Shown: in pieces, positions 1,649 through 45,991 of the stretch
How the letters are laid out: each line of letters begins with the position of its first letter
How positions within the stretch are numbered: position 1 is the stretch's first letter
Sequence record: OZ346228.1
Direction: 5' to 3' (one strand)
Source of the DNA: a phage
DNA length: 64,000 nt
Notes under the pieces: model-generated
What the model saw: the letters and a program-made list of their open reading frames with translations, nothing else
Told to the model about the DNA's origin: nothing
Databases searched by the model: none
Translations under genes and position numbers: made by a program

Positions 1649-3205
1649 GTGTCCAAAAAGAACCGCAGGAAACACAACGCCACAGCCAAAACTGTGAATA
1701 AATCTGGGAACGCAGGCGCACCAACTCATAATGTTCGTATGAGTGAGATCGGTTCTGGCGCACTTTCCCAAATTATGGCAGAATCGCAATCTATGATGGT
1801 TGAGGAATTGCGTTGGCCTCAGCTGATTGCCACAGTGGAGACTATGAAATGTGATTCCACAGTTGCTACTGCCTTAGATACAAAATATGTTTTCATCACG
1901 AAAGCATTCAATGATTTTAAGATCCTTTATAATGTTAAAAGTGAAGACTCTAAGAAAGCTGCCGAGCTTATAGAGTATTCTTTGCGTAATTTGGCAAACC
2001 AACAAACTCTTCGAGATATTGCAAGAAGCGCAGCTACCTTTAACGAGTATGGTTTTTCACTGTTTGAGAAAGTATACCGCAGAGAGAAAGAAGGTAAATA
2101 TGCCGGGATGCTTCTTATTGATAAAATTGCATTCCGACCTCAGGCCAGCCTGTCCAGATCAGAGCCGTTTGTTTTTGACAAGAATAGTAGAACACTGACA
2201 GGTATTTATCAGTCACCTAATGCATTTCTAAACACTCAGAATGCACGCTGGGCTGGACCTCTTGCTGCAATGCCTTCAAAAGGCTTTAATGAGCCTGAAA
2301 TTTTCATCCCTGCTAAAAAGCTTATGCTCATGACCCTGTCAGGAACAGAATCTAACCCTGCAGGTGTGTCACCGATGATAGGTTGCTACAGATCTTTCCG
2401 TGAGAAAGTTCTGATTGAAAACCTTGAGGTTGTTGGCTGTTCCAAAGACCTTGGTGGTGTGCTTGAGCTGAAAATTCCTTCCAATATTTTGAACAAGGCC
2501 AGCATTGACCCGAATTCAATGGAAGGGAGAATGGTTGCAGATCTTATGCTTGACGCAGCAAACGCCCATAGTGGTGAGCAAAGTTTCTTTATACTTCCGT
2601 CTGATAGAGATAAGTCTGGTAAAGAGCTTTACTCCATGACCCTGAAGGGGGTTGACGGTATGGGTAAGCAGTATTCCACTAAAGATTTGATTGATGCCCG
2701 TAAGAAGGCGATTCTTGACCGTTTCGGTGCTGGCTTTATTAACCTCGGTAACGATAACGTTGGATCCTTCTCTCTGTCTGAGTCAAAACAGTCTATCCAT
2801 GGTCATTTTGTTCAGCGTGATATAGATATTATCACTGAAGCCTTCAATAAGGATCTTATTCCACAGCTTCTGGCATTGAATGGTATCATCCTTGAAGATG
2901 ATGATATGCCTAAACTGAAACCTGGTCTGATTGAAGAAGTGGATATGGAGAGCTTCTCCAAGTTTGTCCAGAGGATCGGTGCTGTAGGTTACTTGCCAAA
3001 AACTCCTGCAGTAATTAATAAGATTCTTGAAGTAGGCGGGTTTGATGAAAGATTTGACGAGGACATGGATCAGGAAGAGCTGATGAAGCTCTTGGGCCAG
3101 GACATCAGTAGAGCTGGTGATGGAATGGCTGCAGGATCCACTGGCAACGGCACTTCTAAGATATCATCAACCAGAGATAATTCCATATCCAACATGGAAA
3201 ATTAA
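1649..3205 (+). CDS. portal protein (putative)
   Basis: 518-aa ORF (GTG start) directly downstream of terL and upstream of scaffold/capsid genes; size and position typical of portal. Confidence 0.6.
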   Translation: MSKKNRRKHNATAKTVNKSGNAGAPTHNVRMSEIGSGALSQIMAESQSMMVEELRWPQLIATVETMKCDSTVATALDTKYVFITKAFNDFKILYNVKSEDSKKAAELIEYSLRNLANQQTLRDIARSAATFNEYGFSLFEKVYRREKEGKYAGMLLIDKIAFRPQASLSRSEPFVFDKNSRTLTGIYQSPNAFLNTQNARWAGPLAAMPSKGFNEPEIFIPAKKLMLMTLSGTESNPAGVSPMIGCYRSFREKVLIENLEVVGCSKDLGGVLELKIPSNILNKASIDPNSMEGRMVADLMLDAANAHSGEQSFFILPSDRDKSGKELYSMTLKGVDGMGKQYSTKDLIDARKKAILDRFGAGFINLGNDNVGSFSLSESKQSIHGHFVQRDIDIITEAFNKDLIPQLLALNGIILEDDDMPKLKPGLIEEVDMESFSKFVQRIGAVGYLPKTPAVINKILEVGGFDERFDEDMDQEELMKLLGQDISRAGDGMAAGSTGNGTSKISSTRDNSISNMEN

Positions 3206-11806: not shown

Positions 11807-12066
11807 GCAAGGTTGTTGTGAGGGCCAGTGAGTGGGCAGCCAAGAACAGTTCACTCAACTGGTTCGACTTTCTTTGGTGCAGGGTGCTCAAGAATTTCAA
11901 AGGGGAAAATTTTGAATCGCTAAATCTTGCAGATATGGCGTATTTTCTGAAGCTCTGTGAGTATCTTGATATCGAAGAATTCCTAGATACCGTCCAAAAC
12001 AGGGAAATGGAGCGGGAGCAGAAGGCTGCCGCAGCTGCTGCGAAAGCTAAGCGCAGGAGAGGATAA
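11333..12066 (+). CDS. tail assembly chaperone, predicted -1 frameshift fusion product
   Basis: -1 frame is open from 11692 to 12066 and spans the slippery site; classic chaperone frameshift arrangement before the tape measure gene. Confidence 0.55.
11701..11707 (+). other. -1 programmed ribosomal frameshift slippery heptamer (T TTT TTC)
   Basis: Zero-frame codons tgT TTT TTC in chaperone gene; -1 frame open 11692..12066. Confidence 0.55.
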
Positions 12067-12071
12067 TCTAA

Positions 12072-12106
12072 GGGCCGGATTCCTTTTCTGGGATCTGGCC
12101 CTTTTT
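12072..12106 (+). terminator. rho-independent terminator (putative)
   Basis: GGGCCGGAT...ATCTGGCCC imperfect stem then TTTTT, between chaperone and tape measure. Confidence 0.5.
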
Positions 12107-12120
12107 ATTATGAGGAAACC

Positions 12121-14457
12121 ATGGCTACAAACAAAATAGTTGCCACAACAGTCAACAAGATTGGCTTTGAGATAGAGAACTCCTCCTACAAAAAAGCTGT
12201 AGAGAAAATTCGCAGTATTGGGAGGGAGTTCAGGAAACTAGGTGAGGATTTTAACTCAGCCAACCCCATGAGCAGATGGCAGGCGGTAGCTGTTAAAACC
12301 CAGCAGACAATGCAGCGGGTTGCCAGACAGCAATCTCAGGCAAATGCTAAGCTGCACAGGGAGAGCGTAGCACAGGCCAAGAAAGAGGCTGCAGTAAGAG
12401 CTGCAATAGAACGTAGGGAGAATGCGAGACGTAAACAAGCTGTAGGTAATCTTACCGCTAAAAATCCAGAAATGGCTAGGATGCGTAAGTTCTACCAGCA
12501 GCAAGCTAAAGAGGCCAAAAAGGCTGCCAAATCTGCACCAGTGTCTTACGGCGGTTATAAGCCACCTAAGGCAAGAGTTCTGGCTAATGCTAAAGCTTTC
12601 AAATATATCCCCAGTAACCCTAATATGGGTGGTGTGGCTTCCGACCCTAATCTTGTGAAAGCTCAGACAGCTGCTATGAATCGTTATCATAGACAGCTAA
12701 GAAGGGACGGTAAAGCTGGTATGGATAATAGGCTTATGTCGGATCGTGAGGCAAGAAGAACCCACCTCTACAACTCCGCGATAAGACTTTCTGCCAAGTA
12801 TGGTGCCGGATTCCGTGGAAGCTTGCCAGGATACTCAGAGTTAGAGTCCAGGTTTGCTCGCGGGGAGATGAAAAAGTCAACCTTTAACGCCCACCTGTCA
12901 GCGCTGCAGTCTGGATTTAAAAGTGCCACCAGCCAAACGCTTACACTAGGCGATGCCATGAGAGACTTACGTAGATCTGTTATTAATGCAACAGCTGCGT
13001 ATACAGCTTTTTCTGGATTTGCTGCGGTTAACAGATCCGGTCACATGATGGAGGGGGCAAGTGCTGCTCTTACTGCTGTTACTGGAGATCCAAACAAAGC
13101 CAACAGTGAGGTTGCGTTTGTCCAGCAAGAGGCTATGCGTCTTGGTTTTGATCTCAAATCTGGTCTTCAAGGTTACGCCCAGATGTCGGTAAACGCCAAA
13201 AACCAGATGACAAATCAGGAAGTGCATGAGTTGTTTTCTGCATACTCCCAGTATGCTGCTGCTTATGGTGCCGATGAGGTAAAATACCAGCGCGGTATTA
13301 TGGCAATCCAACAGATGCTCGGTAAAGGGCAAGTAATGTCCGAAGAACTGAAGCAACAACTTGCTGAAGCATTGCCTGGTGCATACGAACCTTTTATCAA
13401 GGCCACCAAAGAGGCTTTTGGTCTTTCTGAACTCTCCATGGATCAGTTCATGGACATGATGAAGAAAGGTGAGGTTAAAACAGCCAAGATCATGAAGTAT
13501 GTGGCTAAGTACATGAACGAGGCATCTGCAGCTGGTTATGAAAGAATGCAGAAGTCTAACGTGCTGGCAGAAAACAGACTGAAAACCTTCATCGAACTGA
13601 CTCGTCAGAAACTGTTCACCCGTTGGTCTGACGAACTAACAGAGTTCTATTATACACTAATCCGCACTGGTGAGACTCTGCAATTTGTGTGGGATGCCTC
13701 TGGTGATTTTGTTAGCGGGTTTGTGAGAGGCCTTAACTGGGTAGTTGGCGAACTAAACAACACTATAGTCAAGATCCGCATGTTTTTCCTTGAATGGGGG
13801 ATTAAATGGGGATTCATAACAGCTAAGACGAAGGAATATTCTGAAGAGCTTCATGACACCTTTAGCTATGCTAAATGGGCAGGGTTTGCTGCTGCCATCA
13901 TGCTGGTAGTCAATGCCCTAACAAAAGGTTTTGTCATGGCATCCATGCTTGTAAAAACCTTTAAATTCCTTAACTCTTTAAGGGGTGCAGCTGGAGCAGC
14001 GGGTGCCGCTACTACAGAAGGATCTGGTGGTGGAGCTCCGGCAGGAAAAGGTGGGGGTGGCCTCAAGACACCTGGTGGCAAAGTTGGTCTGCTCGGTAAG
14101 CTGGGCATTATCGGTACAATACTAAGCGCTGGGGAATTATTTAATGACCGTTACAACCCACTAAGTGAAAGAAATCAGCAGCTGGATACTATCAGCGATA
14201 TGATTCGCAAAGATATCATATCGGGAGGTAGCGGATTTGTTAATCCTTTGGACACCTTACCGGGCGGGACTCTTCCGTTGCCAGGTGGCCCTGGTTTTGC
14301 TTCTCAATTAAGAACTATGGAAATGCTACCTTTAGAGATCAGTGATGGGAAAATCACGATTTCAATAGATGAGGGTGAGTTTAACAAAATATTTGATGCA
14401 AAACTTGAGTGGGAGAACAATAAAGATATCAACTTCATGTCTACCGACCTTTGGTAA
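12121..14457 (+). CDS. tail tape measure protein
   Basis: 778 aa, helical and Ala/Gln/Lys-rich with Gly-rich segment GAAGAAGAATTEGSGGGAPAGKGGGG; follows chaperone pair. Confidence 0.8.
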   Translation: MATNKIVATTVNKIGFEIENSSYKKAVEKIRSIGREFRKLGEDFNSANPMSRWQAVAVKTQQTMQRVARQQSQANAKLHRESVAQAKKEAAVRAAIERRENARRKQAVGNLTAKNPEMARMRKFYQQQAKEAKKAAKSAPVSYGGYKPPKARVLANAKAFKYIPSNPNMGGVASDPNLVKAQTAAMNRYHRQLRRDGKAGMDNRLMSDREARRTHLYNSAIRLSAKYGAGFRGSLPGYSELESRFARGEMKKSTFNAHLSALQSGFKSATSQTLTLGDAMRDLRRSVINATAAYTAFSGFAAVNRSGHMMEGASAALTAVTGDPNKANSEVAFVQQEAMRLGFDLKSGLQGYAQMSVNAKNQMTNQEVHELFSAYSQYAAAYGADEVKYQRGIMAIQQMLGKGQVMSEELKQQLAEALPGAYEPFIKATKEAFGLSELSMDQFMDMMKKGEVKTAKIMKYVAKYMNEASAAGYERMQKSNVLAENRLKTFIELTRQKLFTRWSDELTEFYYTLIRTGETLQFVWDASGDFVSGFVRGLNWVVGELNNTIVKIRMFFLEWGIKWGFITAKTKEYSEELHDTFSYAKWAGFAAAIMLVVNALTKGFVMASMLVKTFKFLNSLRGAAGAAGAATTEGSGGGAPAGKGGGGLKTPGGKVGLLGKLGIIGTILSAGELFNDRYNPLSERNQQLDTISDMIRKDIISGGSGFVNPLDTLPGGTLPLPGGPGFASQLRTMEMLPLEISDGKITISIDEGEFNKIFDAKLEWENNKDINFMSTDLW

Positions 14458-14468
14458 TAAACTGTGCA

Positions 14469-14492
14469 GGGGGCTCCGGCCCCCTTTATTTT
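14469..14492 (+). terminator. rho-independent terminator
   Basis: GGGGGC-TCCG-GCCCCC then TTTATTTT, after tape measure gene. Confidence 0.7.
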
Positions 14493-14499
14493 ATCGGTG

Positions 14500-14528
14500 T
14501 TGTAAAAACGGCTATTTTATGATACAAT
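14500..14528 (+). promoter_or_regulatory. sigma70-like promoter, extended -10
   Basis: TTGTAA, 17-nt spacer, TGaTACAAT; after tape-measure terminator. Confidence 0.45.
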
Positions 14529-14561
14529 ATCTAGATGGTATCGGAGTGTCCTGGAGAGGTT

Positions 14562-15446
14562 ATGCCAAGCAATATAGTTGATGAAAAAGACCTGTACAAG
14601 CCTCAAGAGGTTAAATCTCCAAAGGCTGAAAAGGCAGAACAGCAAACTGAAAGCGATGTAAAGTACACTATGTTTGTCAGCGGTCTTAACTATGGTGGTC
14701 GCAATACGGAGATGAAGGGTAAAAACTTTACTAACGATCTTGCCATCATCTTCGATCAGGTTGAGAATTACTCTTTCAAACATTCTGTTGATAAGACTGG
14801 GTTTGCGGTGGAAGATAAATCTACCCTGTCAGACCACGCTGTAATTAAAGATGGTGTATTTTCTTTTACTGGTAGGGTAAATACATCACCACATATAATC
14901 TATGAGCAAAACTACATTGACAGGAATACTGACTCTAAAAACCCTGCAGCGTCTATGCGACCAGGCGCTGCACTGGAGGCTTTGACTGAGATCATTAATA
15001 AGCGCCAGTTGGTTTCTTTGGTTACCGAGGAGAGACTCCTTGAGAACTACATCATAACCAGCCTTTCTGCCAACAAGTCTGTTGGTGAAGGTGCTGCGAT
15101 GGTGTTTGATGTAGAACTTACAGAGTTCCGCACATTCTACTTGAACAAGGTTGTTAATGCAACTGTATACAGCAACCCTAAGAAAGTAGGCAAGACCCAG
15201 CAAAAAGGTGCTGTCAACGACTGTAAGAATGGCAGTAACGTAGGTAACAAGAGGGACACAGGGGCATTTGCAGACACTGCATCCACAAATGCCGCAGAAG
15301 AGTGGCAGCCCTACAAATCTATGATGTGGACGGATGAAAACGGTGTTACTCAATCTGCTGCGGATTGGTATTATCAGGAATATGGAAGACCTTCTACCAT
15401 AGTCCCATCTGAGCAGGGAAACTACAACAAAGTTAACGGAAAATAA
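14562..15446 (+). CDS. tail/baseplate protein (hypothetical)
   Basis: ATG at 14562 after RBS GGAGAGG and promoter-like TTGTAA-17-TGaTACAAT; first gene after tape measure. Confidence 0.4.
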   Translation: MPSNIVDEKDLYKPQEVKSPKAEKAEQQTESDVKYTMFVSGLNYGGRNTEMKGKNFTNDLAIIFDQVENYSFKHSVDKTGFAVEDKSTLSDHAVIKDGVFSFTGRVNTSPHIIYEQNYIDRNTDSKNPAASMRPGAALEALTEIINKRQLVSLVTEERLLENYIITSLSANKSVGEGAAMVFDVELTEFRTFYLNKVVNATVYSNPKKVGKTQQKGAVNDCKNGSNVGNKRDTGAFADTASTNAAEEWQPYKSMMWTDENGVTQSAADWYYQEYGRPSTIVPSEQGNYNKVNGK

Positions 15447-38517: not shown

Positions 38518-40263
38518 ATGGCGCAAGACATGACAAGCTTCGAGCAGGCGGTAGATCAAGTAATTGTTGATTCTGAACGTTTGCACTTGATTGTCAACGG
38601 TAACGCTGTGGATGAAGTTGTCGTAGAGGATGGGACCACTATCCCTACGGTACGAAAAGCCATGCTTGACACCCTTTATTTTAAAACGCCACCAATCCCT
38701 TGGGCGTATGGTGCATCCACAACAGTTTTTAACCAGTTGTATGAGTTTAAAGGGGATACAGGCACTCAGTGGTGGTACGCCCCAGCAGCATCAAAATCTA
38801 ACCCGGTTAGAATGCCAGCAGATCCTTCACAATCTCCAAACTGGAGATTATACACCGACTCTGCAGTAATGGCAAAATACTACGCAAAACTTAACAGCCC
38901 AAGGTTCGAAGGTGACCCGCGAGTACCTACACCTCCAATGGACGATAAGTCAGAGTCCATAGCAAACACAGAGTTTGTTGTTGACTATGTTGATAGCATA
39001 TTTAAAGCCATGGAGGGGATGAAAGTTACTGTAGGATCTTTGGTGGTAAAAGGTCTTACAGAACTCGCTAACACTATAGTTGGTGGCACCCTTACCTTAC
39101 ATGGACCTGTTAATGGGGCAGATTCTACTGCACGCTTTAGGAATCTAATCCTCACGGCAAATACTTCTACACTTACTTTTGCGTGGAGCGATCCTAAGCA
39201 TGCAGACTGGAGAAGTACAGAGCTGCAACCTCATGAAGTGTCCACCCACAGGGTTATAGCTGACACTATAACTTCTGGGAAACCAGTGGCTAATAATAAC
39301 GATGTGCATTTTGATGGTCTGGGTAATAACTTTTTTGACTACGTGTACATTCGTGGTAATGCCATGAAGGCAGCAACCGAACCGACATTGCAGGTAGATG
39401 GGACCACCAGGGTTAAGAACCTTGAGGTGACAGGTACCGTTACAGGGATAACATACTCTGTCGATGGCACCATGATCTACCCTAGCTATATTGAAAGCAC
39501 TGGTGATGCATTGATAAATGGCGATTTGGAGGTTGGCGGGTCTGTAGTTATTCGAGGTACGGCCTCTATCCAAAACATAGCTCTGAATACCTTAAGAGTC
39601 AATGAGCGTGCAACTTTTGAAGGAGAAGGGCTTACAGCCAACAAAGGTGTAATTACCGAGCTGACAACAACCACTTTAACTGCAACAGCTGCAAACTCTG
39701 AAAACTGCAACGTTACCCGCAACTTGCAGGTAAATGGAGATGTCAGTTTAAACGCAGCAGGGCCTGGCACCACCTCTGTTCACAACCTTGAAATATCCGG
39801 CACGGTGACTGGGTGGTTGCCTGACTTCTCTAATGTCACCTTTGTCTGTAATGGCATTAACTCCAGTGGCAAGATAACCACCTCTCAAGAAATTGAGGCG
39901 GGTAAAACCATTACTGCCCCTACTTTCCACGCAGGAAAGGTAGATTTTGATTTAGAGGAGGTTGACGCGTCCAGTGGGACATGGACACCTAACGGGCAGG
40001 CCAGTATGTATGTTGTTCACGCGAAAGGGGATTTTACAATAGGACAGTGGCCTGGGACATCAGCGGAAGATAAACCTTATCCATTCACTGCGGTTATCTA
40101 TGTAATTCAGGATGCTGTAGGTCACAACGTGACTTTGCACGATAAGTATGCTATCCTGTCGGCAACACCTGTTATTAACAACAAGGCTAACAGTGTTACC
40201 TTGCTGCAATTAACGTATTGTGGTGTTGGTGATATCGTAGACGTAGTAATTGCACAACGTTAA
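38518..40263 (+). CDS. tail fibre protein (beta-structure rich)
   Basis: 581 aa; Thr/Gly/Val/Asn-rich repetitive segments typical of fibre shafts; RBS TAAGGAGAA. Confidence 0.5.
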   Translation: MAQDMTSFEQAVDQVIVDSERLHLIVNGNAVDEVVVEDGTTIPTVRKAMLDTLYFKTPPIPWAYGASTTVFNQLYEFKGDTGTQWWYAPAASKSNPVRMPADPSQSPNWRLYTDSAVMAKYYAKLNSPRFEGDPRVPTPPMDDKSESIANTEFVVDYVDSIFKAMEGMKVTVGSLVVKGLTELANTIVGGTLTLHGPVNGADSTARFRNLILTANTSTLTFAWSDPKHADWRSTELQPHEVSTHRVIADTITSGKPVANNNDVHFDGLGNNFFDYVYIRGNAMKAATEPTLQVDGTTRVKNLEVTGTVTGITYSVDGTMIYPSYIESTGDALINGDLEVGGSVVIRGTASIQNIALNTLRVNERATFEGEGLTANKGVITELTTTTLTATAANSENCNVTRNLQVNGDVSLNAAGPGTTSVHNLEISGTVTGWLPDFSNVTFVCNGINSSGKITTSQEIEAGKTITAPTFHAGKVDFDLEEVDASSGTWTPNGQASMYVVHAKGDFTIGQWPGTSAEDKPYPFTAVIYVIQDAVGHNVTLHDKYAILSATPVINNKANSVTLLQLTYCGVGDIVDVVIAQR

Positions 40264-40311
40264 TATATCTAACCGCTCCTGACGGGGCGGTTTTCTTATC
40301 TGGAGAACACA

Positions 40312-43300
40312 ATGCTTCCAATCCCTTTGCTAAAACTTGGTCGTCATTTCCTCGATAAGAGGGGTGGAATTAAGGAACTTGCTGTTCTGTCATACCCAAT
40401 AGACAACAGTGATGGTACAAGCAACACAGTATCCTATGTAAATAGCTTAGCTATACTTTTTGATGATGGTCAGCTTAATATTACTGGCTATAACAAGTTC
40501 GGAGAGTGCCGCACTGGGGATCGTAGCCCTATAAACTATCCGAGCGAAACAGCCTGGAATGTTGATCATGTGTGGAGAGCAGACCGCGCGTTTGTGATCC
40601 GGACTTTTGATAACCAGTTTTTCTACATCGGCTGCACTGCAGGTCTTATCGGATCCACTGCGGCAGGCGGTAATGATGTTTGCGTAAACGAGTGGACACC
40701 ACTCCCAGAGCAGATTGTTAAAGGATTGCACCTTGACACCCACCCAGAACGCCTTATTGAGGTGATGGGCGGTATTAACAACACTGTCTGGGTTATTGCA
40801 GAGGCAGAAGGTACTGGCATACTTAACCTGTATGGATCTGGTAACAACACCTACGGATCTTTGCATGTAGATAAAAATCAGCATGCAACCCCTGTAAAGA
40901 TTGGTGAGACATCGGAAAATCCTGAAACAGGCCCTTGGAAAAACCCAAGCATCAACTGTGAGGTGCATGACAACTCTGTTATTTTCGGTGGTCCTAGGGG
41001 TTTCTGGATTGCTGGATACGACTTTCTGAGAAATAACAGTAGAAACGACCTTGTTTGGCCTCCTGTGCAGATTACTCGTAACGATTTGAGGGGCATTCCT
41101 GCAGATGAGGAGTGGAAAGGGTTTATGTGTGGTCCTAACGGGGCAGTAATTGCTACACAGAGGATGCATAGACCCGATGACCAGCAGCTTGTTAACGTAT
41201 TTTATGGTCAAAACATTTGGGGAGATGATACATGGCGGGAACTGAATATCACCTACACCCATGAGGTAATGATGGCTCGTGGGTACGGCACAAGTGGCAT
41301 TTTCTTCAATAATGGCACTAAGCAGTATCGTGGGTTCTCTCGCAACTTATGTAATGATATTGGTGCACAATCTGCAAACAATAGTCCTAGGGCCGATTTT
41401 ATCCACTATCAAGCTCTTGCTACAGCTAAATATGTTGAGCAACGCCTGCCAGTCAGCTGGACAGAGAGTGTTTATTTCCAAGGCATCCACAGAGAAGGTT
41501 TCTTAGGGACCTTTACTGTTGTTAATGGTAAACTTTGGTGGTCAGGTATCCCAAGGGGAAGTTTTACAGGCTCTAATAACCTGTTTGGCGGCAGACTTAA
41601 TAGTCAGGGGTTCACAGAGGTTCCTGAGAATTGGTATAAAAATGTCCCAGTAGACAGTTGGGGCGTTGATGATATTTTCGACGTTAATGGTGTTAGCAGT
41701 GTTAGCAATATCTACATTGGTGACACGGTCAAGATGAAATTGAAGCCTCAGCCAGAGGGAGCTACGTTCATCATTGACAAGATTGAACTGGTGAATGCTG
41801 CAGGTACGGTTGTTACAGATGCAAATTACCAATTCTCCACCAACTGGAACCACGGCGGGGCCAACGAAGTTGTTGTTACCCAGTATAACAGAAATGTTAA
41901 CAGACGTGGCCTGTACTCTGTAAAAATAACCTATCATGACAAGCATGGCACAGGCAGAACTCACACGACAAGGACTTTGAACTGGAACACCATAGTTCCT
42001 GCGTATCCGTCCAACGGCAAGTGGCATACCGTTGGTAGAAACAAGCAGTTCCATGTTAACGATACTGTATACTTTGGGCTGAATGGGACCCAGCCTGCAG
42101 TAGAAGGGGATACATCGTATATGGTCAGACTCCACAGAATGGATGCTGGATCAGTCACTTATGATGTGACCCAAGAGATCTACGATCAAAGACGCGCCAC
42201 GTATGACAATATTGTGAAAACACAAGCCTTGTGGGAGTTCAATCCTAATGGCAAGGGTGGTAAAATGTTGCAGGTTAATGAGCAGAACGGAACGTCGTTG
42301 ACTGTTCACGAACACCCAGACCCTTGGCCTGATCCTGGAAAACCTCACCCGGGAGCTCGTACACTGAAAATTGTCAGCCATGATGCAGGATATTTCGGAA
42401 TACGCTGGGAAGCTACAGTAAGATATGTCGACGGGACAACAAACAACATAGGGATTACACTTGGCGGCACTAGTGAAGATAGCTCGCTGAAAATTGCCTA
42501 CACGCCCAGAGGTATCTCTATTGATAATATGGATGTTGTTCGCAATGGTTACGGCGATGTGAATGTCAAAGTTACTCTTGGCGAACATCTTGGTGGGGAA
42601 AGGATCATCATGTATGCCTTTGATCATGATCCACGCACCAATGGAACTTATGCAAATCAGGCATGGAGTTACCTGATAAATGCACCTGAGCCGAATACTA
42701 AAGAGTTCTACTATGGCATGAAGCGAGATGTGTGCAAGAAAACAGGAACACATGACTGGATTGCTATCTGCGTTAAAGATGAGCGCACAGCTTGGGATGA
42801 GCCTGTTAACAGATGGTTCATAGGTATTCCTACCAGAAGTGATAAGTATGTCGCAGAATATATTGTATGCATGGGCGGTACCAACCTAAACATGTGTTGG
42901 AACGAAGATGTAAACAAATACTCTGATTATGACTATATGAGGGATTACTCTTGTAATTTGTGGTTTAACCAAACTACAGGTTACCCTCCAAGACAGGCGA
43001 GAGTAAACCCTGCAATCTTCACAGACACGCAGGTTTTCTTGACAAAACAGGCCAACGAGGTTCAGACCTTCAAGAATAAATACGATCCTAACAAGTGGTT
43101 CTACAACTGTTACGGCGCATTTTTCTGGGGACCTGGTGAGTTACCTGGTGGTGGATCTTGCTTGAATGAGGCAACTTACGCAAGTGACTACATCATGGGG
43201 CAGGTCAAGAAGTATAAGATAATCCCCGGTCCTGAGACTTTGGGCAATGCCGTTGACCCTTATATCATCATGACTGCACTGAGATCAAACATGGATGGGA

Positions 43301-45948
43301 CATCCATGTCCATGCAAATTCCGGTAACAAACGGATACAAACGTGTTGTGATGATCATTAAGTGCGACCTGATAGGTAAACAAGTTCTTGCAGAAAACGG
43401 GACATCCACACATCCTTTTGAGATCGCTCTGCACTATCAGTTTGCTGACTCACCTTTTGCAGGGGATAAGAGAATATCTGATACAGACGCACAGCGTTGT
43501 AAGAAAGTATTGTTGGGTGCAGGTTGGTGGTGGTATGAGTTTGATTTAACAGACAAATTCACCGACACGTCTAAAGTTGTAACAGGACTTCGTCTAGACC
43601 TTGGCGAGAACATGCACAAAGCTGTTTGTGATGGCACCTATGGTGACCCTACAATATACCTAAAATATGTTTCTTTTGAGCATCCGGAAGATGTTGTCTA
43701 CGGTCCAAAACTGAGATTGTTTGGCAGCTGGATTGCAAAAGATAGGGTAGGCATGGGTAAGAAGGTAAGAGGGTTCTTGGTTGATGCAGGAACAGAAGAC
43801 ATGCTGGTTAATGCAGTATGGCCTGAATTACCTGGGACTCAGTGGGACAACTCAGCCAAATCTATAAACTGGTTTAACATTCATAGGGCCATGTGGACCA
43901 CTAACTGCTACTTGTGGAGAGAGCTTAACGATCAGGCCTTTGGATTCAGCGAGGGTAGAAGGATGGCGATCATTTGCTGGACAACACTGCAAAGATGTTA
44001 TGACCATGACTATGAGATTGGGGGCAGGGCATGGAAAAATATCAGGGATAGAATCATAACCAATTTTGCAGACGACAACGGTGGTGGAGCACATAACTTT
44101 GGCACAAGCCGACTCATCCATTTGAACGGATCCTCAGCCTACAAGAAAGAAGGTTACTCTGGGTCTATGATCGAGCGGGGTCTGGTGAAAGATGCTCGCG
44201 TATTGATGGGCCAGCAACTTGCTGCCGCAGTAGGTCCCAGCGCAGTGCAGTCGGTTAAACCAGCGTGGTTCGATATTCCATTGTGGTCACCCGGAACACC
44301 GGGAACTGCTGCAATCAACCCTACCACTGGGGATCTGGAAATCTCCTGGGAAGACCTGAAGCAGGTCGGTGGTTGGGACAAAACAGGGTATCAGGTTCAA
44401 TGGTGGAGGGCTGACGGATCTTTAGCCGCTGATGAGTTTGTTAAGGACAATTTCTACACTATGTCCTCTGCAAAAGCACAGCAATTATTTGGTCAGGCAA
44501 CTCCGTCAACGATCACCATGTCTATGTGCTGTAAAGACAACAGGACTGGAGCTTTGGGGCCAAGGGTTGCTAAAGTTTTCTCAGGTATTAAATGGAATCT
44601 ACCTGTCCAAAGTATTTCATGGAAGCAAATAGGTGATAACAAGCTGCTGGTTACCCCTGCCTGTCAGTTCAACGCAACTCTTAACGTTGATCCTGCTGTT
44701 GCGGCAAACTCAGCTAAAGCTTCTGACTTCTCTGTGTCTAACACTGCTATGGCAGATGTGAGGAAGATTGACACGCTGAACGCCAGAATTACCTGTAAAA
44801 ACACTTATGGCACATTCCAAATCATCAACAACTTCACAGATGCTGATTCTAAGGTAGTGAGGACAGCAAGCCAGACTCTGAGTTTAGGAACTCTGGCCTA
44901 TGCGGCCCTGATCACCGAACAGTCGGCAACACTCCAAGGAGGTGGTGTAGGCAAGTCCATTACAACACCTGTGTGGAAGCCAAATGAGTGGGTTGTGTTT
45001 GATTTGACTGTGGACTTCTCCAGCGATAATAACTGGACATGGGTAAGGAATTGTTTGTCACAGTTGATGGGCGGTCCAAGCTCCGTTAGTGATAGTCACG
45101 ACTCTACTGACCCGAGTGTGTTCCAGGTAGGTAAAACTCACCCAGAGACTGGAGAAACGTTGCCTGACAGGAAGTATGCTTTGGTTTGCATCTCTTACGG
45201 GAAGGCAGATGTCGCCTTCTCAGGGACACACACTTATAACGGAACCTACAACTTCTCAAGGAAGTATAGTCTCAAAGCAGGGAACATTATAGACGAGGTT
45301 GGTGCGCTGTATAATCCGGGCAACGGCATAGGGATTGTTGGTGGTAAACTGCAGATGCAGGAACCTTCTATTACCCCTTCCAACGTATCCGGGATTAGAA
45401 AGACTTGGGAAAGTAGTAATACCAACATTGCAACAGTGGATGCCACCACAGGACTGGTAACATTTAAAGCTACTGGGAATGTCACCATAAAGTTTGTAGT
45501 TACTGATGATGTAGGGCGCAAAACGTCTTCAACATCTTTTACTGTCAAACAGATGGCACCACAGTGGAGAATGTGGATAGGTACAGCAACAAACGGGGCA
45601 TACCCTAATCCGTCAGGTACTTCTGGTATGAAGACTTTCTCTACAAGCAAACCGATGGAGTACGGCAGCGGTCCTAAGGTAGGGCAGATGGTGTACTTTG
45701 GTGCGTATATTCCTGAAATTATAGGGCTTCCTAGAAGTCAGCTTCAGTTGCTGTTTGGGGCTGGTGTTGACGATCTTGCCACTTTCGGGTATAGCGACAA
45801 CATCGAGGCTGCAAGGAGTTCAGGATGGGTAGGGTTCAGAATGGAGTCTGGAAAGGAAGGCAGGATTCTAGGGACAGCCTCTATAGGTGTTATGTTCCCT
45901 GGTGACCAGCAGTATCGTCTAGAAGCCTACGCAACCTTTTCTCGTTAA
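40312..45948 (+). CDS. giant virion-associated protein with Ig-like domain(s)
   Basis: 1878-aa uninterrupted ORF; C-terminal region contains bacterial Ig-like motif (SNVSGIRKTWESSNTNIATVDATTGLVTFKATGNVTIKFVVTDDVGRKT); ends at bidirectional terminator. Confidence 0.5.
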   Translation: MLPIPLLKLGRHFLDKRGGIKELAVLSYPIDNSDGTSNTVSYVNSLAILFDDGQLNITGYNKFGECRTGDRSPINYPSETAWNVDHVWRADRAFVIRTFDNQFFYIGCTAGLIGSTAAGGNDVCVNEWTPLPEQIVKGLHLDTHPERLIEVMGGINNTVWVIAEAEGTGILNLYGSGNNTYGSLHVDKNQHATPVKIGETSENPETGPWKNPSINCEVHDNSVIFGGPRGFWIAGYDFLRNNSRNDLVWPPVQITRNDLRGIPADEEWKGFMCGPNGAVIATQRMHRPDDQQLVNVFYGQNIWGDDTWRELNITYTHEVMMARGYGTSGIFFNNGTKQYRGFSRNLCNDIGAQSANNSPRADFIHYQALATAKYVEQRLPVSWTESVYFQGIHREGFLGTFTVVNGKLWWSGIPRGSFTGSNNLFGGRLNSQGFTEVPENWYKNVPVDSWGVDDIFDVNGVSSVSNIYIGDTVKMKLKPQPEGATFIIDKIELVNAAGTVVTDANYQFSTNWNHGGANEVVVTQYNRNVNRRGLYSVKITYHDKHGTGRTHTTRTLNWNTIVPAYPSNGKWHTVGRNKQFHVNDTVYFGLNGTQPAVEGDTSYMVRLHRMDAGSVTYDVTQEIYDQRRATYDNIVKTQALWEFNPNGKGGKMLQVNEQNGTSLTVHEHPDPWPDPGKPHPGARTLKIVSHDAGYFGIRWEATVRYVDGTTNNIGITLGGTSEDSSLKIAYTPRGISIDNMDVVRNGYGDVNVKVTLGEHLGGERIIMYAFDHDPRTNGTYANQAWSYLINAPEPNTKEFYYGMKRDVCKKTGTHDWIAICVKDERTAWDEPVNRWFIGIPTRSDKYVAEYIVCMGGTNLNMCWNEDVNKYSDYDYMRDYSCNLWFNQTTGYPPRQARVNPAIFTDTQVFLTKQANEVQTFKNKYDPNKWFYNCYGAFFWGPGELPGGGSCLNEATYASDYIMGQVKKYKIIPGPETLGNAVDPYIIMTALRSNMDGTSMSMQIPVTNGYKRVVMIIKCDLIGKQVLAENGTSTHPFEIALHYQFADSPFAGDKRISDTDAQRCKKVLLGAGWWWYEFDLTDKFTDTSKVVTGLRLDLGENMHKAVCDGTYGDPTIYLKYVSFEHPEDVVYGPKLRLFGSWIAKDRVGMGKKVRGFLVDAGTEDMLVNAVWPELPGTQWDNSAKSINWFNIHRAMWTTNCYLWRELNDQAFGFSEGRRMAIICWTTLQRCYDHDYEIGGRAWKNIRDRIITNFADDNGGGAHNFGTSRLIHLNGSSAYKKEGYSGSMIERGLVKDARVLMGQQLAAAVGPSAVQSVKPAWFDIPLWSPGTPGTAAINPTTGDLEISWEDLKQVGGWDKTGYQVQWWRADGSLAADEFVKDNFYTMSSAKAQQLFGQATPSTITMSMCCKDNRTGALGPRVAKVFSGIKWNLPVQSISWKQIGDNKLLVTPACQFNATLNVDPAVAANSAKASDFSVSNTAMADVRKIDTLNARITCKNTYGTFQIINNFTDADSKVVRTASQTLSLGTLAYAALITEQSATLQGGGVGKSITTPVWKPNEWVVFDLTVDFSSDNNWTWVRNCLSQLMGGPSSVSDSHDSTDPSVFQVGKTHPETGETLPDRKYALVCISYGKADVAFSGTHTYNGTYNFSRKYSLKAGNIIDEVGALYNPGNGIGIVGGKLQMQEPSITPSNVSGIRKTWESSNTNIATVDATTGLVTFKATGNVTIKFVVTDDVGRKTSSTSFTVKQMAPQWRMWIGTATNGAYPNPSGTSGMKTFSTSKPMEYGSGPKVGQMVYFGAYIPEIIGLPRSQLQLLFGAGVDDLATFGYSDNIEAARSSGWVGFRMESGKEGRILGTASIGVMFPGDQQYRLEAYATFSR

Positions 45949-45966
45949 CAAGGGGATAAATAAAAA

Positions 45967-45991
45967 GGGGCCAAACGGCCCCTTTCTTTTT
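45967..45991. terminator. bidirectional rho-independent terminator
   Basis: GGGGCC-AAAC-GGCCCC flanked by A-run upstream and T-run downstream, between convergent operons. Confidence 0.7.

Follow-up and report, generated by a model that had tools for sequence, protein, structure and literature searches.

A giant Ig-domain protein of rV5-like coliphages has a predicted RCC1-like N-terminal domain and may act as an accessory adhesin

What does the largest protein of the tail-fibre locus do in rV5-like phages? These phages are broad-host-range candidates for therapy and biocontrol, and the assignment of genes to the parts of their fibre apparatus is unsettled (BASEL paper). The question was addressed here in a phage DNA of 64,000 nucleotides (sequence record OZ346228.1; this whole stretch is called the window), in which an open reading frame (ORF) at 40312-45948 on the + strand encodes a protein of 1878 amino acids (aa) that is orthologous to gp27 of phage rV5. 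A preliminary description of the ORF had proposed a large fibre, a tail-associated adhesin or an enzyme-carrying virion protein. Of the three, the adhesin was favoured by the evidence, whereas a large fibre in the usual trimeric sense and an enzyme carrier were not supported. Our favoured reading, to which we assign a probability of roughly 0.5, is that gp27 is a dispensable, probably low-copy, virion-associated accessory glycan adhesin that is anchored by its N-terminus, most likely at the periphery of the tail or baseplate. It draws on the position of the gene at the end of a tail-fibre cluster, an N-terminal module shared with tail-cluster genes of other phages, a fall in conservation from the N- to the C-terminus, and a C-terminal half built of beta-sandwiches.

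The identity of the gene was established by Megablast, which placed the window in the genus Vequintavirus, the rV5-like coliphages. At the nucleotide level the ORF was 99.9% identical to that of naswa, 99.7% to that of Murica and ~89% to that of rV5 (643 mismatches, no indels), and matches covering at least 80% of its length came from 108 phage records. The gene is already catalogued and annotated in more than 100 genomes, and rV5 gp27 and its Vequintavirus orthologues represent the same gene, with the same 1878 aa, the same position and no material difference. In rV5, gp27 (YP_002003529; 208,334 Da) was tabulated as a 'conserved hypothetical protein' with Big_2 (Kropinski et al. 2013, Table S3, PMC3606486). 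Its RefSeq label is 'Ig-like domain-containing protein', another label given to orthologues is 'structural protein with Ig domain', and the hand-curated BASEL genomes use 'lateral tail fiber protein with intimin domain'. Its own PHROG, phrog_15684, has the function category 'unknown', and a literature search returned no paper on the function or structure of gp27 or of any homologue.

To what kind of fold, then, does the protein belong? Its N-terminus matched phrog_4219, 'regulator of chromosome condensation', with E = 3.8e-7. Taken alone, the window protein stayed below the Pfam thresholds (WD40_RLD, 21.2 bits against 150, E = 2e-4; RCC1_2, 13.2 against 22), and a PDB sequence search with its N-terminus alone gave no match. 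Homologues were more informative. By tblastn, aa 1-197 were found to be common to other phage groups, including Phapecoctavirus (~41%), Seunavirus PVP-SE1 gp40, 4MG_038, SSE121 and Cronobacter phage GAP31. The same residues were 42% identical (E = 7e-29) to phAPEC8 gp086, an 891-aa 'tail protein' of phrog_11922, and the two proteins were alignable to about aa 445. This homologue passed the Pfam cut-off for RCC1 (PF00415; 24.0 bits against 21.7) and matched WD40_RLD with E = 6e-11, and its first 420 aa matched RCC1-like propellers in the PDB, namely RPGR (3e-6), HERC2, UVR8, HERC1 and RCC2. A joint alignment of the window protein, rV5 gp27, a 40%-identical metagenomic homologue (from a locus termed L003), phAPEC8 gp086 and three Seunavirus proteins was colinear from residue 1 to ~445, and the profile of this joint family matched UVR8 (5e-16), HERC1 (4e-12), HERC2 (2e-8) and RPGR (4e-8) in the PDB.

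From these profile comparisons we conclude that aa 1 to ~445 form a predicted RCC1-like beta-propeller. With a length of ~425 aa and about seven G-x-N-x-x-G-x-L-type motifs, as counted by eye, the domain fits a propeller of seven four-stranded blades; internal repeats were not detectable in it by BLAST, and the predicted local distance difference test scores (pLDDT) from AlphaFold2 (AF2) were mostly below 50. The RCC1-like assignment of the N-terminus is new, as the standard annotation of gp27 misses that domain. The propeller is the only part shared across the Vequintavirus, Phapecoctavirus and Seunavirus homologues, and the propeller end is probably the one by which the protein attaches to the virion.

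The shorter homologues give an idea of how the protein may have been assembled. In phAPEC8 gp086 the RCC1-like domain is followed by two Big_2 stretches and a further C-terminal part; its gene (12001-14676 of its locus) ends the tail cluster and has terminators on both sides. The Seunavirus homologues have 567-604 aa; their N-terminal RCC1-like homology was shown by the joint profile, and their Ig domain is taken from the records, which label them Ig-domain or hypothetical proteins (tail or Ig-domain proteins in PVP-SE1 and 4MG), and from an alignment with the Ig part of phAPEC8 gp086. In phAPEC8 gp086, PVP-SE1 gp40, 4MG_038, SSE121 and GEC_vB_MG, the N-terminal propeller is homologous to that of the window protein, whereas these proteins of 567-891 aa are without the extra Ig-like domains, an orphan region at aa 839-1331, an FN3-like domain and the Vequintavirus C-terminal module. 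Such shorter homologues point to a common anchoring or core module to which further modules were added: the family core looks like a propeller plus Ig, and Vequintavirus would have added ~1000 residues. phAPEC8 gp086 is itself a mosaic, with aa 1-584 shared within Phapecoctavirus and Seunavirus and aa 411-891 found again within a larger lateral tail-fibre protein from a phi92-like phage. Siphovirus major tail proteins and phi92 gp152 also share its Ig domains.

The remainder of gp27 was modelled with AF2 in two segments on a shallow 16-sequence alignment. The mean pLDDT was 44.9 for aa 1-960, which made that model unusable, and 57.3 for aa 900-1878. Segment-wise structure prediction, which had been recommended in the preliminary description, was thus carried out, and was confident only for the Ig domains of the C-terminal half and mostly of low confidence elsewhere. 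Together with the profile searches it gave the following domain map:

40312-41646, + strand: RCC1-like beta-propeller domain (aa 1-445), the most conserved part, from profile and homologue evidence
41656-42825, + strand: about three Ig-like or PKD-like beta-sandwiches (aa 449-838), from AF2, a weak PKD_4 match and moderate conservation
42826-44304, + strand: orphan region (aa 839-1331), ~500 aa that interrupt the beta-sandwiches and have no homologue outside the family
43126-43683, + strand: beta-sandwich (jelly-roll) domain (aa 939-1124), AF2 pLDDT 55-87
44305-44583, + strand: FN3-like beta-sandwich (aa 1332-1424), from AF2
44599-45075, + strand: variable beta-rich segment (aa 1430-1588), replaced in distant homologues, identity 0.21-0.29
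45076-45558, + strand: two Ig-like domains (aa 1589-1749), AF2 pLDDT 75-93, the second being Pfam Big_2
45559-45945, + strand: C-terminal beta domain (aa 1750-1878), with two allele groups within the genus

Behind the propeller, AF2 gave all-beta segments at aa 449-565 and 735-838 with pLDDT values of 50-79; an Ig-like domain lies at ~aa 449-565, and a weak PKD_4 match (E = 0.076) covered aa 485-553. In the following orphan region, conserved Trp/Cys-rich segments that are predicted to be helical (aa 839-938 and 1125-1331) flank the beta-sandwich at aa 939-1124, which is possibly similar to a carbohydrate-binding module (CBM) according to its model. The delimitation of this region is new. It gave no PDB sequence match and no Pfam, NCBIfam or informative PHROG match, and an exhaustive hmmsearch with a profile of aa 800-1440 against 1.84 billion representative proteins found nothing outside the gp27 family. 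Tryptophan made up 2.98% of all residues of the protein, with 4 W per 50 aa at aa 401-450, 1151-1200 and 1551-1600, so that the Trp-rich regions noted in the preliminary description were qualitatively borne out as three local clusters.

Does the orphan region conceal an enzyme? Its segments at aa 839-938 and 1125-1331, with aa 939-1124 inserted, could form a new glycan-degrading or glycan-modifying domain that the Ig and CBM-like modules would target to surface polysaccharide. The stretches at aa 839-950 and 1151-1250 stood out from the adjoining sequence in conservation (0.69 at aa 901-950, 0.70 at aa 1151-1200) and had many invariant Trp, Cys, acidic and basic residues, including E1162, D1163, H1191, R1192, E1235, E1280 and E1288. 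About 11 helices were predicted in the ~320 aa around the CBM-like insert, and other fibre proteins of rV5-like phages have glycosidase or deacetylase domains. Nevertheless, similarity to a catalytic family was found neither in Pfam, NCBIfam, PHROGs and PDB sequences nor among the 1.84 billion proteins, the conserved Trp and acidic residues would be no less at home in a binding site or a structural core, and the pLDDT of 22-38 made the model of the helical part (aa 1125-1331) uninformative and a comparison of folds impossible. We therefore regard an enzyme carrier as distinctly unlikely. Should the orphan region turn out to be an enzyme or a new glycan-binding fold, engineering could make use of it; otherwise gp27 would be an ordinary accessory adhesin.

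The C-terminal half appeared as a string of Ig-like and CBM-like beta-sandwiches in the AF2 models and their structure matches. At least one bacterial Ig-like domain had been expected near the C-terminus, and the full-length domain scan located Big_2 (PF02368) at aa 1682-1738 (nucleotides 45355-45525) with 33.7 bits against a cut-off of 22.8 (E = 3.5e-8), rising to 36.7 bits when the C-terminal piece was scanned alone. In the PDB, the Ig domains matched intimin (E = 0.0035, 48 residues) and Sap Ig domains, and searches with the whole protein, a whole-family profile and a mid-region profile returned nothing beyond Ig domains. The NCBIfam model intimin_all scored 24.6 bits against a cut-off of 1400, with ~40 residues of one Ig domain aligned. 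Since only ~40-48 residues of one Ig domain match, the label 'intimin domain' overstates the relation, and the correction of this label for gp27 is new.

The other half of the BASEL label describes a different possibility, in which gp27 would be a genuine trimeric lateral tail fibre that makes up one of three fibre sets in rV5/phi92-like phages and is needed for the recognition of some hosts. Besides that annotation, under which gp27 is the last large lateral tail-fibre gene and shows moderate allelic variation, this view can appeal to the adjacent gene for a true fibre protein, gp28 (phrog_4549), in the fibre cluster, to the drop in conservation from the N- to the C-terminus and to fibre II of phi92, which is unassigned. 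The protein itself does not look like such a fibre. Neither a coiled coil, a triple or parallel beta-helix, a collagen repeat nor a C-terminal chaperone was found in Pfam, PHROGs, NCBIfam or the low-confidence AF2 models, and Peptidase_S74 was likewise missing from Pfam, PHROGs and predicted secondary structure. Its layout, with an RCC1-type propeller (a fold that is usual in monomers) leading into Ig, FN3 and CBM beads on a single chain, is that of monomeric surface proteins, and the 'intimin domain' is simply Big_2. A trimeric fibre is thus unlikely, and the labels 'intimin domain' and 'lateral tail fibre' are both misleading and are corrected here.

How the chain is oriented may be read from its conservation. 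Mean identity per 50 aa was ~0.75-0.8 at aa 1-450, ~0.55 at aa 450-830, 0.4-0.7 at aa 830-1430 and 0.2-0.4 at aa 1450-1878, and this fall towards the C-terminus resembles, by analogy, that of receptor-binding proteins. A BLAST map of the distant homologue group comprised a core at aa 1-1433 that was 53-59% identical, a replaced segment at aa 1435-1585, and a C-terminal module at aa 1585-1860 that was ~36% identical and missing from two clusters; in the homologues P0003-P0014, homology ended at ~aa 1433 and resumed at ~aa 1585. Within the genus, the last 294 aa fell into two allele groups (~95-99% and ~80% identical), and a search for them across phage genera found none outside Vequintavirus. 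Residues 1750-1878 are probably the distal, ligand-facing tip.

Selection and exchange have both left their mark on the gene. The ratio of nonsynonymous to synonymous substitution rates (dN/dS) against rV5 was 0.063 for the whole gene (Nei-Gojobori), which identifies the ORF as a gene under purifying selection, and it was 0.03-0.12 in seven of eight regions; the value of 0.30 for the C-terminal region rested on almost no substitutions (dN 0.003, dS 0.011). The dS itself varied ~100-fold, from ~1.5 at aa 1-450 and 1125-1331 to 0.01 at aa 1750-1878, and this swing indicates that segments have been exchanged by recombination between Vequintavirus lineages.

The family is small. A collection of 5.8 billion proteins held only 15 clusters of homologues at 90% identity, which were 40-96% identical and 1711-1976 aa long, and their longest contigs measured 15-142 kb, seven of them 110-142 kb. 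A profile search seeded with the 15 clusters returned the same 15 from that collection and no distant relatives, and a search with the N-terminal 450 aa alone returned near-identical fragments and again no distant relatives. Three database entries deserve comment. A 96%-identical homologue (P0001) carries a precomputed match to PF26918.1, which local Pfam reported neither there nor in the window protein; PF26918.1 may have been created recently from part of gp27. A 'hypothetical protein, partial [Eggerthella lenta]' (P0018) on a contig of 955 bp is 98% identical to part of the gp27 N-terminus and is probably rV5-like phage DNA contaminating a bacterial assembly. Lastly, 15-20 GenBank MG0656xx records of 'Campylobacter phage' with C. 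jejuni as host contain a ~93% identical gene and have rV5-like genome sizes; it looks as if the host assignment is wrong or the preparations were contaminated.

Is the protein needed for growth? Deposited orthologues annotated as two or more ORFs were aligned to the window, and the lesions were located. At least seven deposited isolates carried inactivating lesions, each a different one:

nomine: W82* (TGG to TAG)
phita32: Q1439* (CAA to TAA), at the boundary of the variable segment
ime: 2-nt deletion at nt 3155
naswa: 1-nt deletion at nt 2284
Alma: 1-nt deletion at nt 624
YP-6: 1-nt insertion at nt 1188
V18: multiple deletions

By annotation, the gene is also split in EPFV3-03/2025 and APECc02. 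For naswa, ime and nomine the recorded host is E. coli K-12 MG1655, and their 3.6-kb J-like tail gene is annotated normally. Natural null alleles in plaque-forming isolates imply that gp27 is not required for plaques on laboratory E. coli, and we infer that it is dispensable there; they also speak against the trimeric fibre. Interruption of the ORF on resequencing, which the preliminary description had taken to count against its proposal, does occur in several sister isolates, whereas the ORF of the window is intact. Given the dN/dS of 0.06, the interrupted alleles argue for dispensability in culture and not for a pseudogene, and the idea of a decaying pseudogene was rejected on that value and on more than 90% intact copies. 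Receptor assignments to other fibre proteins fit this dispensability: the NGR/ECA glycan is bound by a deacetylase-domain fibre, and the lipopolysaccharide (LPS) core has been assigned to the short tail fibres (BASEL paper among the sources).

That gp27 is located in the virion is suggested by its relatives. Three RCC1-like proteins of phage W70 (Vequintavirinae), W70_237-239, belong to phrog_4219 and to the same propeller family as the gp27 N-terminus, and were abundant in W70 virions as confirmed by mass spectrometry (MS; 141-233 spectra). These proteins stand alone, have 40-43 kDa and are encoded outside the tail module, whereas gp27 fuses the propeller to ~1400 more residues. They give indirect support for the presence of gp27 in the virion. 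PVP-SE1 gp040 appears in a table of that phage's structural proteins, in which the mark of MS confirmation is unreadable. The rV5 micrographs occasionally show thin tail fibres of 70 nm; these match the length expected of a gp27 chain and are compatible with it, and nothing links them to gp27. As a further observation on the family, the jumbo phage phAPEC6 encodes eleven RCC1-like proteins.

Several observations weigh against an accessory adhesin on the virion. In the rV5 MS file, which identifies only 19 proteins in all, gp27 has 3 peptides from 9 spectra and a coverage of 3.1%; the three peptides were non-tryptic or semi-tryptic, had mass errors of 1-2 Da and Sp ranks of 1, 9 and 14, and were no better than the matches to the non-structural rIIA in the same file. 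The text of the rV5 paper omits gp27 from the structural proteins detected. Cryo-EM studies of phi92 and phiTE place no gp27 homologue, each leaving one fibre unassigned. The excess of split alleles was small, annotation-dependent and suggestive only (~8 of 60 evenly sampled records, against 2 of 60 for the 3.6-kb J-like control tail gene), and some of the 1-nt indels sit in short homopolymers and could be sequencing errors; two nonsense substitutions and a 2-nt deletion are unlikely to be artefacts of this kind. Finally, the orientation could be the reverse of that proposed, with the N-terminus binding a conserved host ligand and the C-terminus on the virion. After inspection of the peptides, the rV5 proteomics was dropped as weak support for virion presence, and it neither confirms nor refutes gp27 in the virion. 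Cryo-EM papers on Sf14 and Pa223 also placed no gp27 homologue, and two leads, phi92 gp151 and the Pa223 gp52 capsid spike (a trimeric beta-helix), proved unrelated to gp27. For a trimeric fibre, 18 copies of a 208-kDa protein should dominate the proteome, and the (shallow) rV5 MS shows essentially nothing reliable.

The same unreliable MS evidence can be turned to another account, namely that gp27 is a late protein outside the virion with a role inside or on the surface of infected or lysed cells, where it might for instance bind cell debris or envelope glycans. A terminator-bounded position of its own and its dispensability would suit such a role. However, a signal peptide or transmembrane segment was not seen when the N-terminus was read by eye, the gene is co-oriented and contiguous with fibre genes and has no promoter of its own, and the related RCC1-like family is present in W70 virions. 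We consider this very unlikely.

Equally little weight is given to a place on the head, either as a Hoc-like decoration fibre of head or neck or as a packaged protein. This possibility arises because the C-terminal 290 aa matched phrog_215, 'structural protein with Ig domain' (E = 2e-48), which PHROGs files under head and packaging, and because Foldseek against viral models yielded Hoc-like proteins among many others. The RCC1-like genes of W70 lie away from its tail module, with a capsid role speculated on by the W70 authors, and gp27 is dispensable in culture, like Hoc. However, a PHROG category is a label and not a test, the similarity to Hoc is that of generic Ig arrays, and the C-terminus varies whereas the capsid is conserved within the genus. 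Furthermore, no head fibres have been reported for rV5, and the gene lies far from the head genes.

Where the gene lies, and how it would be expressed, can be seen from its flanks:

40271-40292, + strand: intrinsic-terminator-like hairpin followed by UUUUCUU, from a terminator scan (fold -14.9 kcal/mol, z -3.5)
40302-40307, + strand: ribosome-binding site GGAGAA, 4 nt 5' of the ATG, read from the sequence
40312-45948, + strand: complete gp27-type ORF with ATG start, 1878 aa, ~208 kDa, phrog_15684, orthologue of rV5 gp27 (rv5_gp027)
45964-45985, both strands: bidirectional intrinsic terminator shared with convergent - strand genes; the rV5 RefSeq record annotates the same terminator pair

The ORF comprises 1878 codons and translates without an internal stop, as the preliminary description had it, and it is not a product of chance because the probability of so many open codons is near e^-90 (arithmetic, with ~3 stop codons in 64). 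In the window, CarlMeissner, rV5, phAPEC8 and L003 it is the final gene of the tail-fibre cluster. Its place as the final gene on the + strand, ahead of a bidirectional terminator, was confirmed too: the GC skew reverses at ~46000, the subsequent ORFs lie on the - strand, and the hairpin at 45964-45985 is GC-rich with U-runs on both sides (-18.4 kcal/mol on the + strand and -20.6 on the - strand; z -2.9 and -4.0). On the upstream side, the tail-fibre gene ends with a stop at 40263, and the hairpin at 40271-40292 is located between that stop and the ribosome-binding site of the giant ORF. The ~20 nt between this hairpin and the ATG are too few to hold a separate promoter. A hairpin is present at the equivalent site in phAPEC8 (11964-11990 of its locus, an annotated terminator), in phage Alma and in L003 (9973-9995), and has thus been kept across three genera. 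A hairpin directly upstream and the missing promoter space point to transcription by terminator read-through at a lowered level, and the arrangement suggests that gp27 is expressed only in this way.

The gene upstream (38518-40263, 581 aa) is that of rV5 gp28 and belongs to phrog_4549. The member of this family in W70 is a tail-fibre protein that is abundant in the virion, and the gp28 homologue in L003 has the Pfam domains Phage_phiTE_241_N and Phage_phiTE_241_C. In the virion, gp28 could be a neighbour or partner of gp27. Three antisense ORFs lie inside the gp27 gene on the - strand (40447-41262, 271 aa; 41542-42135, 197 aa; 42151-42753, 200 aa) and most likely just reflect the codon composition of the gene on the + strand.

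How might an accessory adhesin of this kind work? The conserved propeller end would dock gp27 on a conserved partner in the virion, and a chain of about a dozen domains could then reach a few tens of nanometres outward. Its distal Ig-like and CBM-like modules would make weak, reversible contacts with surface polysaccharides, and such contacts may raise the rates of encounter and adsorption on natural hosts that are encapsulated or bear O-antigen. On E. coli K-12 the protein would be unnecessary if the deacetylase fibre, through the NGR/ECA glycan, and the short tail fibres, through the LPS core, suffice. Read-through of the hairpin at 40271-40292 would keep its copy number low. A bolder version, which we hold to be quite improbable, pictures gp27 as a phage appendage of a new kind, a single-chain 'fishing line' of ~50-70 nm with its propeller docked on the baseplate, an orphan region that is a glycan-active catalytic or a glycan-binding domain of undescribed fold, and substoichiometric amounts due to read-through; its effect would be confined to natural hosts or to mucus. 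If true, this would explain the repeated loss of the gene in laboratory isolates.

The analysis offers a domain map with a candidate RCC1-like anchor, an orphan core and a variable tip, and adds evidence for dispensability and for read-through expression; none of this is likely to come as a great surprise to a phage specialist. The natural null mutants nomine, phita32, ime and naswa make the role of gp27 in adsorption and host range testable.

Among known systems, the lateral fibres of T5 bind surface glycans and speed adsorption, and are not needed on K-12 without O-antigen (BASEL paper). These L-shaped fibres and similar accessory fibres offer a functional analogy to the role proposed for gp27. 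In structure the two differ, as T5-type lateral fibres are trimeric and beta-structured and fold with the assistance of a chaperone, none of which was detectable in gp27. Compared with the intimin/invasin adhesins, gp27 is without the outer-membrane beta-barrel anchor, the LysM domain and the C-type-lectin tip. Another point of reference is T4 Hoc, a 376-aa capsid protein with tandem Ig-like domains that is dispensable in laboratory culture and presumed to provide weak adhesion to carbohydrates. Like Hoc, one of the Ig-like accessory virion proteins (Fraser et al. 2006, as cited in a later paper), gp27 has tandem Ig-like domains, is dispensable in culture and is presumed to adhere weakly to carbohydrates. 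Unlike Hoc, which has no propeller, it is five times larger, is encoded in a tail-fibre cluster and carries an orphan region.

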